From Betaproteobacteria bacterium (GTDB taxonomy: Bacteria; Pseudomonadota; Gammaproteobacteria; Burkholderiales; SG8-41), in NCBI GenBank assembly GCA_900299145.1, contig OMIN01000149.1, positions 41,745 through 105,744 on the forward strand: a stretch of 64,000 nt of DNA, in the 5' to 3' direction. Of the stretch, positions 35,759 through 40,092 are shown piece by piece (position 1 is the stretch's first letter; every line of letters starts with the position of its first letter). A program made the translations under genes and the position numbers. Below the pieces are notes generated by a model. That model saw only the letters and a program-made list of their open reading frames with translations. It searched no databases and had not been told where the DNA came from.

Positions 35759-35875
35759 GAATATTCCAAAGCGTGTTACATAAGTTTTTGATTTGCTTGA
35801 ACTTCCTTGCTCGGCTAAAATTATACGCTGACATATCCCGTTAACTTATTGCTCACCGAATATCGAAGTCCGCGC

Positions 35876-37060
35876 ATGGAAGAGTTTCCCCGAATCAAAC
35901 GGCTGCCGCCTTATGTGTTTAACGTCACCGCCGAACTGAAGCAGGCGGCACGCCGGCGTGGCGAAGATGTTATCGACTTCAGCATGGGCAACCCCGACGG
36001 CCCCACGCCGCAGCACATCGTCGATAAACTGGTGGAAACCATCGCGCGCCCGGATACGCATGGATATTCGGTGTCGAAGGGGATTTTCCGCTTGCGCAAG
36101 GCCATCTGCAACTGGTACCAAACGCGCTACAACGTTGAGCTGGACCCCGATTACGAAGCCATTGTCACCATCGGCTCCAAGGAAGGCATCGCGCATCTTG
36201 CGCTCGCCACGCTGGAGCGTGGTGATGTGGTACTCACGCCCAACCCCAGCTATCCGATCCACATTTATGGCCCGGTGATTGCCGGCGCGGAAATCCGCCA
36301 CGTGCCCATGCATGCGGACGTGGATTTTTTCGATGAACTCGAAAAAGCCATCCGCAACGGTTATCCCAAGCCGAAAATGCTCATCGTCAATTTTCCCAGC
36401 AATCCAACTTCACAGTGCGTCGACTTGGCGTTCTTTGAGCGGCTGGTGGCGATTGCGCGCGAGCACAATATTTACGTCGTGCACGATCTGGCGTACGCCG
36501 ACATTGTGTTCGACGGCTATCGAGCGCCATCGATCCTCGAAGTGCCCGGCGCCAAGGAAATCGCTGTCGAGTTCTTCACCATGTCGAAGAGCTATAACAT
36601 GGCCGGCTGGCGCGTGGGTTACATGGTCGGCAACCGCGACCTCGTTTCCGCACTCGCGCGCATGAAGAGCTATCACGATTACGGCACGTTCACACCGATA
36701 CAAGTGGCGTCGATCATCGCGCTCGAAGGCCCGCAGGATTGCGTCGAAGAGGTGCGCCAAACCTACCAAAGCCGCCGCGACGTGTTATGCGCTGGCCTGC
36801 ATGCGGTAGGATGGAACGTGGAAATTCCCAAGGCGGCCATGTATGTGTGGGCACCAATCCCGGAGAAATACAAGAAAATGGGATCGCTTGAGTTTTCCAA
36901 GAAATTACTCGCCGATGCCAAGATCGCTGTCGCACCGGGCATCGGTTTCGGCCACTATGGCGATGGACACGTGCGTTTTGCAATGATTGAAAATGAAGCA
37001 CGGACAAGGCAAGCGTTACGTGGCATTAAAGAGATGTTCAGGAAGGATGGACTGCTATGA
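35876..37060 (+). CDS. alaC: Alanine transaminase (class I/II PLP aminotransferase)
   Basis: [32 protein letters not shown]; synteny with hom. Confidence 0.92.
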
Positions 37061-37218
37061 GTCCAGCGATACAGGGCTTCATTCCGGCGCAGGCTAACTT
37101 TTGCTTAGCAAAAGTTAAGTTCGACGGTACGTCGAACGACCGTAGCCAAAATGAAGCACGGACAAGACAGGCGTTACGTGGCATTAAAGAGATGTTCAGG
37201 AAAGACGGCCTGCTATGA
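36990..37218 (+). repeat. 71-bp direct repeat (36990-37060 and 37148-37218) flanking an 87-bp double-hairpin core
   Basis: 66/71 identical; core hairpins at 37095-37117 and 37119-37137. Confidence 0.92.
37057..37218 (+). CDS. 53-aa mini-ORF ending in a copy of the AlaC C-terminus, ATGA-coupled to alaC and hom
   Basis: [53 protein letters not shown]; translated by hand. Confidence 0.6.
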
Positions 37219-38528
37219 AACCCATCAATGTAGGCTTACTCGGCATCGGTACCGTCGGCGGCGGCACATTTACCGTGCTTGAACGCAACCGCGAGGAAAT
37301 CTCGCGTCGCGCAGGGCGCGATATTGTCATCACGGTGGTGGCCGACAAGGACATGAAGCGCGCCAATGAGGTGGTGAAAGGCCGCGCGAAAGTCATCGAT
37401 GATGCGATGGCGGTGGTGAACGATCCGTCCATCGACATTGTGGTTGAATTGATCGGTGGTACGGGAATTTCCAAGCAATTGATTTTAAAGGCAATTTCCA
37501 ACAAAAAACACGCGGTAACCGCGAACAAGGCGCTGCTTGCGCAGCACGGTAACGAGATTTTCGCGGCTGCACAAAAAGAAGGCGTGATGGTGGCGTTCGA
37601 GGCGGCGGTGGCGGGTGGTGTGCCAATTATCAAGTCGCTGCGCGAAGGTCTTGCGGCGAACCGTATTGAATGGATCGCAGGCATCATCAACGGCACCTCG
37701 AATTTCATTTTGTCGGAAATGCGCGACAAGGGCGCGAGCTTTGACGACGTGTTAAAGCAGGCGCAAAAACTCGGCTATGCCGAGGCTGACCCGACGTTTG
37801 ACATTGAAGGCGTCGATGCCGCGCATAAGCTGACCATTATGGCGGCCATCGGGTTTGGCATTCCGATGCAGTTTTCCGCAGCCTACACCGAAGGCATTTC
37901 AAAGCTCACGCGCGAAGACATTCAGTACGCGGAAGATTTGGGTTACCGCATCAAGCTGCTTGGCATTGCCAAGCGCAAGGCTGGCGGCATCGAACTACGT
38001 GTGCATCCGACGTTGATCCCGGAAAAGCGCCTGATCGCCAATGTCGAGGGCGTGATGAACGCGATACTGGTCAAGGGCGATGCCGTCGGGCAAACCATGT
38101 TCTATGGCGCGGGTGCGGGCGCGGAACCGACGGCTTCCGCAGTGGTGGCCGATTTGATCGACGTCGCGCGTACCATGACCGCCGATCCAGAACATCGCGT
38201 GCCGCATCTGGCGTTCCAGCCGGATCGGTTGTCCGACATCGCGATATTGCCGATGGGCGAAGTTGAAACCGCCTACTACCTGCGGCTGCGGGTGCAAGAC
38301 AAACCCGGCGTGCTGGCGGACATCACGCGCGTGCTGGCTGATCTTGGCATTTCCATCGATGCCATGGTACAAAAAGAGCCGAGCGAAGGCGAAGCACAGG
38401 CCGACATCATCATGCTCACGCACCGCACGGTGGAAAAAAGCGTTAACGCGGCGATTGCGAAAATCGAGGCGCTGCCGGTGGTGACAGGCAAGGTCACCCG
38501 CATCCGGCTGGAAGCGCTGGATAAGTAG
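37215..38528 (+). CDS. hom: Homoserine dehydrogenase with ACT domain
   Basis: GIGTVGGG, VTANKAL, EAAVAGGVP, GYAEADPTFD. Confidence 0.97.
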   Translation: MKPINVGLLGIGTVGGGTFTVLERNREEISRRAGRDIVITVVADKDMKRANEVVKGRAKVIDDAMAVVNDPSIDIVVELIGGTGISKQLILKAISNKKHAVTANKALLAQHGNEIFAAAQKEGVMVAFEAAVAGGVPIIKSLREGLAANRIEWIAGIINGTSNFILSEMRDKGASFDDVLKQAQKLGYAEADPTFDIEGVDAAHKLTIMAAIGFGIPMQFSAAYTEGISKLTREDIQYAEDLGYRIKLLGIAKRKAGGIELRVHPTLIPEKRLIANVEGVMNAILVKGDAVGQTMFYGAGAGAEPTASAVVADLIDVARTMTADPEHRVPHLAFQPDRLSDIAILPMGEVETAYYLRLRVQDKPGVLADITRVLADLGISIDAMVQKEPSEGEAQADIIMLTHRTVEKSVNAAIAKIEALPVVTGKVTRIRLEALDK

Positions 38529-38679: not shown

Positions 38680-40092
38680 GTGCGCTACATCAGTACTCGC
38701 GGCGGCATGAGTCCGCGCGGTTTTCGGGAAATCCTGCTGGAAGGCCTGGCCACCGACGGTGGATTGGCAATGCCGGAATCGTATCCTCGCTACGAGGCCC
38801 CTGATCTCGCACGCCTGCGCAAACTGAAATATCGCGATCTGGCGTTCGACATTCTGTCGCGTTACATCGACGATATTCCCGCCGCCGATCTCAAGCGGCT
38901 GATCGACGCCACATACACAGCGGAAGTGTTCGGTAGTGACGACATCACGCCGCTGAAGACGCTGGAGCCGGGTCTTCACATTCTGCAACTGTCGAATGGA
39001 CCGACGCTGGCGTTCAAGGATGTGGCGCTGCAACTGCTCGGCAACCTGTTTGAATATGTTCTCGCTGAGAACCACGGTGAATTAAACATACTCGGGGCCA
39101 CATCGGGTGATACGGGTTCCGCCGCCGAATATGCGATGCGCGGCAAGCGCGGCGTGCGCGTGTTCATGCTGTCGCCGCACGGCAAGATGAGTCCGTTTCA
39201 GACGGCACAGATGTACTCGCTGACCGATCCGAACATATTCAATATCGCGATCAAGGGCGTGTTTGATGACTGCCAGGATATTGTCAAACAGGTATCCAAC
39301 GATGCGGAATTCAAGCGTCGACATCACATTGGCACGGTGAATTCGATCAACTGGGCGCGCGTGGCGGCGCAGATCGTCTACTACTTCAAGGGCTACTTTG
39401 CCGCTACGACGCTCGACACGCAGCAGGTGTCATTCGCCGTGCCGTCGGGCAACTTCGGCAACATTCTCGCCGGACACATTGCGCGCATGATGGGTTTGCC
39501 GATCCGCAAGCTGATCCTCGCCACCAACGAAAACAACGTACTCGACGAATTTTTCCGCACCGGGCGTTACCGGCCGCGCGGTTCTTCGGAAGTGCATCAG
39601 ACGTCCAGCCCGTCGATGGATATCTCCAAGGCGTCGAATTTTGAGCGTTTTGTATTTGATCTTACCGGCCGTGACGCGGCGCTGCTGCGTACGCTGTGGC
39701 AGTCGGTCGACGGCGGCGGTGAATTCCGGCTGGCCGATACGCCGCTCCTGGGCAAAATGCCCGGCTTCGGCTTTTTGTCCGGCACGAGCACGCACGCCGA
39801 CCGCATCGCCACCATCCGCAGCGTGTATCAGCGTTATGGCGTGATGATCGACACGCACACGGCAGATGGCGTCAAGGTGGGGCTGGCGTGCCGCGAACCC
39901 GGCGTGCCGCTGATTTGCCTGGAAACCGCACAGCCGGTAAAGTTTGCCGAAGTTATCAAGGACGCACTGGGCCTCGAGCCGGAATGTCCCGCAAACTGCC
40001 GCGAACTCGCGCAGTTGCCGCAGCGGGCGGAGGTTATGGGGGCCGATGCCGCGGCGGTAAAACAGTATGTGCACGATCATTGTGTATCGTAA
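38680..40092 (+). CDS. thrC: Threonine synthase
   Basis: YISTRG, GPTLAFKD, ATSGDTGSA, NSINWAR, VPSGNFG. Confidence 0.97.
   Translation: MRYISTRGGMSPRGFREILLEGLATDGGLAMPESYPRYEAPDLARLRKLKYRDLAFDILSRYIDDIPAADLKRLIDATYTAEVFGSDDITPLKTLEPGLHILQLSNGPTLAFKDVALQLLGNLFEYVLAENHGELNILGATSGDTGSAAEYAMRGKRGVRVFMLSPHGKMSPFQTAQMYSLTDPNIFNIAIKGVFDDCQDIVKQVSNDAEFKRRHHIGTVNSINWARVAAQIVYYFKGYFAATTLDTQQVSFAVPSGNFGNILAGHIARMMGLPIRKLILATNENNVLDEFFRTGRYRPRGSSEVHQTSSPSMDISKASNFERFVFDLTGRDAALLRTLWQSVDGGGEFRLADTPLLGKMPGFGFLSGTSTHADRIATIRSVYQRYGVMIDTHTADGVKVGLACREPGVPLICLETAQPVKFAEVIKDALGLEPECPANCRELAQLPQRAEVMGADAAAVKQYVHDHCVS

Follow-up and report, generated by a model that had tools for sequence, protein, structure and literature searches.

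Genes and features at the aminotransferase–hom junction

The window, a 64,000-nucleotide stretch of betaproteobacterial DNA, carries on its plus strand a class I/II aminotransferase gene (35849..37060; Pfam Aminotran_1_2, E=2.8e-62), followed by hom (37215..38528), which encodes a homoserine dehydrogenase with an ACT domain, and by the next gene on the same strand, thrC (38680..40092), encoding threonine synthase; hom and thrC were likewise assigned from their open reading frames and Pfam matches. The name alaC for the aminotransferase gene is the label given in a preliminary description of this DNA and is putative. The last 71 nt of the gene, its true 3' end (copy 1, D1/T1, 36990..37060), recur on the same strand at a spacing of 158 nt as a displaced tail (copy 2, D2/T2, 37148..37218), which retains the native ATGA junction with hom. 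As that description had stated, the two copies form a direct repeat (66 of 71 positions identical), with only 87 nt between them. Copy 1 begins at GAAAAT, read in the frame GAA-AAT, and contains the Shine-Dalgarno-like AGGAAGGA of hom together with the ATGA, the duplicated segment (D) extending from the A-run through this overlap. The five differences between the copies (G>A, A>G, G>A, T>C and A>C) are all synonymous, again as first described, with no nonsynonymous change among 22 codons (locus row L045); if single changes fell at random in this set of codons, 23% would be synonymous, which gives p=0.0007 for five out of five.

The first part of the intervening DNA (37061..37080, plus strand) consists of a junction filler together with the beginning of the duplicated segment in inverted orientation. 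Here GCTTCATT (37076-37083), which continues into the left arm of the element, is reverse-complementary to AATGAAGC in the tail, and positions 37145-37157 pair with 37076-37088 (inverted repeat I7); in relatives the sequence is GGGCTTCATTT. The element proper (E; 71 nt, 37081..37151, plus strand) was delimited by family alignment, covariation and an RNA fold that predicts a three-way junction. It is composed, in this order, of the left arm ATTCCGGCGCAGGC, hairpin 1, a single A, hairpin 2, the right arm GACCGTAGCC and AAAA, the last being common to the element and copy 2. Both hairpins previously noted in the 87-nt core were recovered: hairpin 1 (37095-37117) has the form TAAC-stem-loop-stem-GTTA with 11-nt arms (37095-37105 and 37107-37117) that are 100% complementary, and hairpin 2 (37119-37137) has eight pairs and a GTA loop. 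The order of parts at the locus is then gene, D1 with its stop codon, filler with the short inverted start of D, E, D2 and hom. The same insert occupies the same junction in three other species of the genus.

A mini-ORF of 53 codons (37057..37218, plus strand) spans the whole insert. Its ATG is the duplicated start codon of hom, lying in an ATGA overlap with the aminotransferase stop codon, and the frame runs through the element and then through tail copy 2 to a stop codon within the ATGA overlap with hom, so that the ORF list agrees with the reported reading frame joining the two genes with an ATGA at each junction.

Other members of the element family

The insert belongs to a family of small palindromic elements that is dispersed and widespread in Betaproteobacteria. 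Family members are 53-77 nt long and have terminal inverted arms enclosing one or two hairpins with GNA loops: a left arm (A/G)TT(T/G)CGGCG-N-AGGC, hairpin 1 (TAAC, a variable 6-bp stem, a GNA loop and GTTA), an optional GC-rich hairpin 2 also with a GNA loop, and a right arm GGCCG-N-AGCCA(A/C)AA. The arms pair with each other with compensatory changes, giving a three-way junction. In 26 gap-free copies of 61 nt, 90.7% of cells were paired, as against at most 45.8% when the partners were slid, and double-sided changes numbered 39 versus 12.3 in shuffles, a value reached by none of 500 shuffles; compensatory change was found at seven pairs of this alignment.

In a sample ascertained by the strict hairpin-1 motif, 55 of 401 genomes of the order were positive, representing 34 of 167 genera, with 142 hits compared with seven for the reversed control (a tally that takes in one unpublished genome, G050, with one hit, and is the only result to draw on it). 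Within the genus the motif occurs in nine of 21 genomes, and positive genomes contain 1-12 hits each. Among public species genomes at least 120 stretches were retrieved, almost all of them labelled Betaproteobacteria. A BLAST search for further copies of the core, as had been proposed, returned a single copy of the 87-nt sequence from its own 5.5-Mb genome, whereas a profile search gave three hits, this insert and two further members of the family. Six identical copies in genome G049 are not independent insertions, being carried within a larger repeat of 207-273 bp whose ends differ from those of E and which merely contains E. Given the low copy numbers, both of motif hits per genome and of profile hits here, the activity of the family may be old.

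Insertion sites, target duplications and empty sites

A flanking direct duplication of 20-200 nt was present in 61 of 136 instances, absent from 72 and unusable in three. The starting point of the duplication is the A-run at the right end of the element, and the target, GA(A/C)AA, is identical to the element's 3' end. Unrelated genes with such a duplication include mraY, sucD, dnaJ, ftsW, argF, ccmE, smpB and cysH, as well as alaC again in another family. Further copies are intergenic, sit at the 5' ends of genes or beside a tRNA, or are in frame within genes, among them recG and one resembling hsdM; copies in frame within long ORFs numbered seven (L074, L076, L116, L139, L168, L194 and L200). 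The dispersal over many unrelated genes bears out the proposal of a small non-autonomous mobile element, but not the idea that stop/start overlaps are its target. Surviving copies are enriched near gene ends because duplication there rebuilds the gene.

Empty sites were found at the alaC–hom junction in 12 insert-free members of the genus, each with exactly one D and a single tail with its ATGA. At recG, nine empty sites can be compared with two filled ones, which differ by a duplication of about 7 nt and an in-frame gain of 63 nt. The inverted copy of the start of the duplication is anchored at position 1 of D and, in 25 of 48 loci, scored better than all 50 shuffles. Neither a repeated misassembly of one locus nor empty sites mismatching the single D were found. 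In this lineage, E inserted at the GAAAAT with which the last 71 nt of the aminotransferase gene begin, with a long target-site duplication; the element is mobile, and its target duplications vary in length. The earlier proposal that insertion duplicates the 3' end of the upstream gene and leaves both junctions able to couple translation was corroborated. In a local tree of the aminotransferase and hom flanks, the four insert-bearing species were not grouped, so that a single origin would require repeated precise loss or lateral spread; the tree is poorly resolved and too weak to date the insertion or to separate these two.

Reading frame and a putative relay of translation to hom

The family keeps a reading frame relative to its targets. 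Of 24 tail targets, 23 have the A-run in the frame GAA-AAx, versus 46-53% expected, and in 31 of 41 loci the tail copy continues the frame of hairpin 1. The spacing between hairpin 1 and the A-run is frame-keeping in 85 of 127 copies (18 nt in 36 copies, 24 nt in 34 and 20 nt in none). At the alaC–hom junction the mini-ORF is open in all four insert-carrying species, starting with ATG or GTG, and in one of them (G015) the tail copy has an in-frame deletion of 33 nt that leaves the ATGA in place. Because copy 1 carries the start region of hom and E is stop-free in the target-phase frame, the mini-ORF would arise automatically; the frame is open partly by construction, and openness alone is weak evidence. 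A complete mini-ORF was present in 10 of the 12 loci whose downstream gene starts at most 15 nt from the stop codon of the tail copy and in 10 of the 26 others (Fisher p=0.015), counts that include orthologous loci and are not independent; it is therefore missing from two coupled loci and also present at ten without a tightly coupled downstream gene.

It is reasonable to suppose that D1 brings with it the ribosome-binding region and start codon of hom, and that ribosomes translating the mini-ORF would melt the hairpins, terminate at the native ATGA and re-initiate on hom. The mini-ORF would be kept open for this reason, and the insertion would be non-polar for hom-thrC. No terminator-like site was detected on the plus strand within the insert. 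Translational bypass of the insert was considered and rejected, since the tail is conserved in each of its two copies and an ordinary stop codon closes copy 1. The layout resembles termination–reinitiation coupling in that the mini-ORF has an ATGA at each of its two junctions (in one species GTGA), like the native junction of insert-free relatives; it differs from plain ATGA coupling in that a relay ORF of foreign origin would lie between the two genes, a role that we infer. The mini-ORF is best read as a by-product apparently kept open to relay ribosomes to hom. Taken together, we consider it probable that the locus reflects insertion of a member of a mobile family with a long target duplication, accompanied by a putative ribosome relay and by a putative target-primed mode of insertion.

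Alternative explanations for the insert and its synonymous divergence

The synonymous-only divergence of copy 2 is not peculiar to this locus. Over all loci, codon differences between tail copies were 113 synonymous versus 38 nonsynonymous, and at loci where hairpin 1 and the tail copy lie in different frames they were 27 versus 13, so that the bias need not come from translation. This favours recombination or gene conversion as its cause, with protein-level selection as the other candidate. It is a serious possibility, although the less probable one, that copy 2 is repeatedly overwritten, by conversion from copy 1 or by recombination with the insert-free alleles of related strains, and that the mini-ORF is an untranslated, unneeded and neutral by-product. 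The out-of-phase loci with the same bias have no start codon leading into the tail copy, and one locus (L104) has nine synonymous differences against one. The rare TTA leucine codon is shared by both copies here where relatives have valine, which argues for conversion between the copies; in G004, copy 2 is nearest to the functional tail of an insert-free species (62/71) and not to its own copy 1, and insert-free alleles predominate in the genus. Nearest-neighbour identities of tails and flanks are suggestive of recombination and indecisive. A neutral by-product, however, fits poorly with the enrichment of complete mini-ORFs at tightly coupled genes and with the G015 deletion, which is in frame and preserves the ATGA. 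In ftsW loci the tail copy is one base shorter at its start than copy 1, which places the short element type in frame with the remaining tail, and the element family is itself frame-keeping.

The pairing of the insert might instead reflect a cis-acting RNA structure in the aminotransferase–hom–thrC transcript, such as a processing site, a stabiliser or a regulator of hom-thrC, whose function preserves the hairpins. Both hairpins are indeed maintained in the four species with the alaC insert, by compensatory changes that also alter encoded residues, the RNA fold predicts a three-way junction with z=-2.46, and the insert is covered by a contig from an RNA library. We regard this as unlikely, for the structure is conserved in the same way at unrelated genes and in intergenic DNA, and its conservation is thus a property of the family. 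An Rfam scan of positions 36500-37700 gave no match other than a chance miRNA hit (E=3.6). GNA triloops and mini-hairpins of the GCGAAGC type are typical of stable single-stranded DNA hairpins, which also speaks against an RNA function. A leader peptide of the thr type was rejected as well: the encoded peptide shows no enrichment in threonine or isoleucine, which argues against a thr-type attenuator.

Selection for a peptide mimicking the AlaC C-terminus, raised as an alternative in the preliminary description, is very improbable. Copy 2 does encode the same 22 residues as copy 1 here, and also does so in G004 despite 16 synonymous differences, but the G015 peptide lacks 11 codons of the tail copy and is altered in the remainder. 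The element-encoded residues vary (FDGTSN, AGGTPG, TGGTPV and AGGTPA) in a manner that preserves base pairs, so that hairpin 2 exchanges amino acids and retains its pairing. The same architecture is moreover found with unrelated gene tails, and the mini-ORF product has no Pfam family match.

A duplicated gene end with slightly different copies could also be the scar of a site-specific integrative element at the 3' end of the aminotransferase gene (an attL/attR remnant with a replacement end) or the VR/TR pair of a diversity-generating retroelement. This is hardly credible, as the same small element is found in many different target genes, the copies are just 87 nt apart, and the five differences are not adenine-specific.

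The presence of 158 contigs in the assembly and of five differences between the repeat copies would be compatible with a chimera of two strains, a concern raised at the outset. Three independent DNA runs, each from a different study (36715-37192 in X5, 37013-37200 in X7 and 37036-37500 in X8), and one RNA run (37036-37490 in X10) yielded contigs that bridge copy 1, the core and copy 2 with no differences. Two of the bridging contigs extend into hom, and the RNA-library contig, which could originate from DNA carry-over, comprises the insert and 275 nt of hom; contig breaks fall within the repeat, so that the whole 801 nt is in no single contig. With the insert present as well in the assemblies of three other species, a chimera can practically be dismissed.

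Comparison with known repeat families

Rickettsia palindromic elements (RPE) are small palindromic repeats located in frame inside protein-coding genes and translated with them, and the part of the source that was covered reports no long target duplication, inverted target copy or rebuilding of gene ends (PMC10969869). The seven copies in frame inside long ORFs and the maintenance of one stop-free frame are RPE-like features of the present family, which is set apart by its taxon, by its length of 53-77 nt against about 100-150 bp and apparently by its sequence. REP and BIME sequences are described, in the covered portion of the literature, as short GC-rich palindromes near gene ends that sometimes supply or overlap stop codons (PMC3733652), with more than 100 REPs per genome (PMC2817692). 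One copy of the present family (L137) likewise supplies the stop codon of the gene upstream. Unlike REPs and BIMEs, however, the family does not reach large copy numbers, and it has paired terminal arms, a three-way junction and long flanking duplications. Its right arm reads CCG-N-AGCC with N being T, G, A or C; the position at which REPs conserve a GTAG or CGTC head beside the palindrome is thus variable here (G-N-A-G), with GTAG as one of the variants, located on the 3' side of the hairpins. It differs from RAYT-associated REPs, as a Y1 transposase was found in one of five high-copy genomes and was flanked by no element within about 1.5 kb. The element family is apparently new to the literature: in agreement with the earlier remark that no named system has this layout, our search, which covered the main texts of articles, retrieved no account of this element, nor of small bacterial repeats that make long target duplications.

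The family also shares features with several other kinds of element. Bacterial MITEs, such as Correia, ERIC and others, are non-autonomous, have terminal inverted repeats, are co-transcribed with their neighbours and are occasionally intragenic. Paired inverted terminal arms, small size and the absence of transposase coding capacity are common ground. MITEs make short target duplications of fixed length, whereas the duplications observed here range from about 7 to 200 nt and start at a site identical to the element end. No parent insertion sequence with matching ends was encountered, the single larger repeat observed being that of G049. Integrative elements at gene ends (tRNA, tmRNA and dusA-type islands) leave the interrupted gene intact by means of a second copy of its end, as happens here. 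Those islands rely on a site-specific integrase and a single target gene; in the present family, one tiny element has many targets and the end is copied from the target itself. A likeness of hairpin 1 to integron attC or Xer/dif sites was rejected, the inner arms being freely variable and the site too short. Only the AAC...GTT base of the 23-25-nt hairpin resembles attC, which is defined by R''/L''...L'/R' boxes over at least 57 nt next to cassettes and an integrase, and the present copies lie at the ends of housekeeping genes. Palindromic elements derived from IS200/IS605 make no target duplication and have a Y1 partner, unlike the present family.

A possible mode of insertion

A search for a mobilising enzyme in five high-copy genomes found none that was consistently present: the Y1 transposase (PF01797) occurs in one and a reverse transcriptase (PF00078) in two, one complete genome has neither, and no element copies lie within about 1.5 kb of those genes. 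The footprint points to target-primed insertion as the putative mechanism. A nicked A-rich site would pair with the A-rich 3' end of the element and prime synthesis on an element template of RNA or single-stranded DNA; the new strand might then snap back on the arm pairing and copy a few target bases, giving the inverted copy, and the variable length of the duplication would follow from a second nick placed at varying distance.

Eukaryotic LINE and SINE elements, which insert by target-primed reverse transcription, have A-rich 3' ends that correspond to A-rich targets; their target duplications are variable and sometimes long, and sequence at the 5' junction is rearranged or inverted. The present element shares the A-rich 3' end at an A-rich target and the variable duplication. 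It differs in being bacterial, tiny and without poly-A, in that its inverted piece is target DNA and not element DNA, and in the inconsistent presence of a reverse transcriptase, an RNA intermediate being hypothetical. No bacterial counterpart of this insertion signature was found in the portion of the literature covered by our search. A full bacterial counterpart of SINEs would consist of a tiny structured template, either RNA or single-stranded DNA, that is copied by target priming into A-rich nicks, with a snap-back inverted copy and a second nick producing duplications of 7-200 nt, and with an evolved stop-free, frame-keeping sequence that makes insertions in coding regions and coupled operons read-through and non-polar; as a complete scheme this is speculative and rather improbable.

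Implications

If the family is undescribed, as the searches suggest, a widespread small mobile element is added to those of the Betaproteobacteria, among which are genera common in fresh water, groundwater and wastewater. The footprint that it leaves on insertion does not resemble those of known bacterial transposons: it combines long and variable target duplications with a palindromic extension from target DNA, and this points to an unrecognised insertion mechanism. The family accounts for short "hypothetical" ORFs and duplicated gene tails that gene-prediction programs will annotate at operon junctions, and for 20-residue inserts in conserved proteins, and its direct repeats are expected to cause contig breaks and precise deletions. 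The aminotransferase–hom locus provides a simple test of whether a relay ORF renders an insertion in a translationally coupled operon harmless.

The aminotransferase-hom junction

The 403-codon gene of a class I/II aminotransferase (35849-37060), named alaC in the preliminary description, is followed in the window by the homoserine dehydrogenase gene hom (37215-38528) and then by the threonine synthase gene. The 3' end of the aminotransferase gene (copy 1, 36990-37060) is present a second time at a spacing of 158 nt (copy 2, 37148-37218) as a 71-nt direct repeat with 66 identical positions, and copy 2 ends in an ATGA that overlaps the hom start. All five differing codons are synonymous (p=0.0007, given 23% synonymous among random single changes in these codons). 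Two perfect hairpins lie within the 87 nt separating the copies, and a frame of 53 codons (the mini-ORF, 37057..37218) runs from an ATG overlapping the aminotransferase stop to the hom ATGA. The preliminary description had reported the repeat, its synonymous differences, the hairpins and the ORF with both overlaps, and every element of that observation was confirmed. The insert is not an assembly artefact: contigs from three DNA runs of three studies and from one metatranscriptome run extend from copy 1 across the core into copy 2 with no differences, two of these contigs also reach hom, and contig breaks fall within the 71-nt repeat, as expected. The contig from the RNA library, which is the sole expression-side record for the mini-ORF, may represent DNA carry-over.

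In a search of 40 related genomes, the insert occupied the identical position in three more species of the genus (G004, G015 and G001), and empty junctions, for which the preliminary description had suggested looking, were found in 12 species of the genus and three of other genera, with a single tail and an ATGA joining both genes. The four carriers are not grouped in a local tree, which is poorly resolved. The mini-ORF is open in all four, starting at ATGA (GTGA in G001) and ending at the hom ATGA; the G015 tail copy carries an in-frame deletion of 33 nt and further changes, with the ATGA kept, and the part of the G001 tail copy that reads N was left out of the comparison. Both hairpins show compensatory changes among the carriers. 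Hairpin 2, which is GTTCGACG/CGTCGAAC in the window and GACCGGCG/CGCCGGTC in G015, contains a G-T pair in G001 and a single mismatch in G004, and its changes lead to different amino acids in the encoded stretch (FDGTSN, AGGTPG, TGGTPV, AGGTPA). At this junction base pairing is preserved and the peptide is not.

A family of palindromic elements

Two extra hairpin-1 matches in one relative prompted a motif search, which detected the motif in 9 of 21 genomes of the genus. A strict motif (GCTAAC, 13-nt hairpin interior, GTTA, no mismatch) gave 142 hits against 7 with the reversed control and was present in 55 of the 401 genomes sampled from the order, belonging to 34 of 167 genera, a tally that takes in one unpublished genome (G050). 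Public species genomes contain at least 120 stretches, almost all labelled Betaproteobacteria, and among those listed are Sulfuritalea, Thiobacillus, Gallionella, Sideroxydans, Casimicrobiaceae, Rhodocyclaceae, Curvibacter, Paucibacter, Roseateles and others. A profile search of the genome under study added two members, at C149:20517-20583 (E=1.5e-8) and C98:43704-43768 (E=0.005).

As defined from 107 extracted copies, the element consists of a left arm, (A/G)TT(T/G)CGGCG-N-AGGC; hairpin 1, whose TAAC/GTTA base is invariant, whose 6-bp stem covaries freely and whose loop is GNA; an A(G); an optional GC-rich hairpin 2 also with a GNA loop; and a right arm, GGCCG-N-AGCCA(A/C)AA. In 26 gap-free 61-nt copies these parts form a three-way junction, with 90.7% of cells pairing versus at most 45.8% with slid partners, and with 39 double-sided changes versus 12.3 in shuffles, a value reached by none of 500. 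Thermodynamic folding gives the same junction for the window element (37081..37151). Rfam contains no match for it.

The commonest hairpin-1 stem, GTGAGCG/CGCGAAC, carries tandem G.A/A.G mismatches (alignment A1 and the order-wide motif list), nearly all loops are G-N-A, and G-N-A is found in both arms, facing each other. Tandem G.A/A.G and GNA motifs are known from very stable single-stranded DNA hairpins, a hint that the active form of the element may be single-stranded DNA.

The C149 member (locus L005, C149:20389-20640, minus strand) lies about 21 kb before the window start, directly upstream of an intact tRNA-Ser(GGA) gene. Ahead of it lies a 43-nt copy of the 5' half of this tRNA up to the anticodon loop (39/43 identical), and the sequence past it begins AAAGCGT, resembling the anticodon loop, so that the locus resembles a pair of tRNA gene copies of which one was hit in the anticodon loop and the other is intact. 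The C98 member (minus strand) is diverged and has a direct repeat of about 40 nt on either side (ACTTCGG.GAT.CG.CGGTGGTTGAT.GG). A separate repeat of 207-273 bp, with inverted ends GGAAACGCTGAA/TTCAGCGTTTCC and six near-identical copies (L230-L235) on contig C1 of genome G049, contains one element copy; in three of the six, a second, short-type element is nested as a 66-nt insertion.

Insertion footprint

A flanking direct duplication of 20-200 nt accompanies 61 of 136 instances; 72 have none and three were unusable. The start of the downstream copy coincides with the A-run at the right end of the element, and that of the upstream copy with GAAAA(T/C/G), or with GACAA(T/G) where the element ends in ACAA. 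The duplicated segments are unrelated gene ends, including mraY (before murD), ftsW (before murG), argF, ccmE, dnaJ, sucD, smpB, cysH and the same aminotransferase in another family, and in some loci gene 5' ends. The first 10-21 nt of the segment often recur in inverted orientation next to the left arm (GCTTCATT in the window); the score of this inverted copy is reached by none of 50 shuffles in 25 of 48 loci, and the inverted copy is closer to the upstream than to the downstream duplication copy in 31 loci versus 5. Simple insertions also exist, as in recG, where two genomes have gained 63 nt in frame, with about 7 nt duplicated, and the site is empty in nine relatives.

Across these loci, recG included, duplication length is therefore very variable and the duplication start matches the element's 3' end. 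We know of no bacterial transposase family that makes such variable duplications at a site matching its own 3' end, and the footprint resembles target-primed insertion of eukaryotic LINEs and SINEs. We propose that the element is copied at the target site by target priming and that the new strand snaps back when the arms pair. Among five high-copy genomes, a Y1 transposase was found in only one and a reverse transcriptase in only two, and no element copy adjoins either gene.

At G107:C1:1226805-1227443 (L075) and on G219:C35, G280:C34 and G009:C45, the element and a duplicated gene tail are repeated together in tandem. Such arrays are expected if unequal recombination or repeated insertion is driven by the direct repeats at the flanks. 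The G107 array has four strict-motif units with a 144-nt period and a fifth 144 nt beyond, its tail ending in NGQPVEFGQPLFVIG and a stop.

Divergence between the copies and the possible role of the mini-ORF

Synonymous-biased divergence between the copies is a general pattern, with 113 synonymous and 38 nonsynonymous codon differences in 28 in-phase tail loci, 27 and 13 in nine out-of-phase loci, and 16 and none in G004. For the aminotransferase-hom junction, the preliminary description had attributed the synonymous-only divergence either to protein-level selection on both copies or to recombination with another allele. Because the bias persists in loci without a start codon leading into the tail copy, and because both copies in the genome under study have a rare TTA codon where relatives encode Val, we think that gene conversion and recombination with insert-free alleles are no less likely to be the cause than translation-level selection; the proposed selected peptide mimicking the AlaC tail is unlikely.

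One frame of the element is stop-free (..SA(K/Q)AN....(K)VK..GRSQN). In 23 of 24 tail targets the A-run has the phase GAA-AAx, which accounts for 46-53% of GAAAA sites in long ORFs of the genome under study, and 31 of 41 tail loci have hairpin 1 and the tail copy in the same frame. Hairpin 1 and the A-run are separated by a frame-preserving distance in 85 of 127 copies, with peaks at 18 and 24 nt and none at 20 nt; this spacing may in part reflect a founder effect of two subfamilies. Given in addition seven in-frame copies inside long ORFs, the family is compatible with translation. At L137 (a Gallionella sp. record), the left arm of the element at about 5994 provides the stop of the upstream gene (GCGTAGGC, read ..TAG), and the duplicated tail past the element retains the -4 overlap with the gene that follows.

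Since copy 1 holds the Shine-Dalgarno-like AGGAAGGA and the ATG of hom, the mini-ORF start is a duplicate of the hom initiation region; from there the frame passes through the element, continues in the native frame of the tail copy and terminates at the original ATGA. The simplest function would be a relay, in which translation of the mini-ORF would melt the hairpins and bring terminating ribosomes to hom. In favor of a relay, frame and both overlaps are kept in 4/4 species, even with the G015 deletion, and the ftsW tail copy starts one base shorter than its copy 1, which puts the short element type in frame with the rest of the tail. A complete mini-ORF is also found in 10 of 12 loci with a downstream start at most 15 nt from the tail-copy stop versus 10 of 26 others (p=0.015), counts that include orthologous, non-independent loci. 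Against it, the openness of the mini-ORF follows partly from its construction.

Relationship to known elements

The element has features in common with REP elements, MITEs and Rickettsia palindromic elements and lacks defining features of the first two. It differs from REP in copy number and RAYT, and from MITEs in having no fixed short duplication; Rickettsia palindromic elements, compared by their features, are likewise compatible with translation. A literature search of article full texts found no published description. We file the element as a small palindromic mobile element with an unusual insertion footprint.
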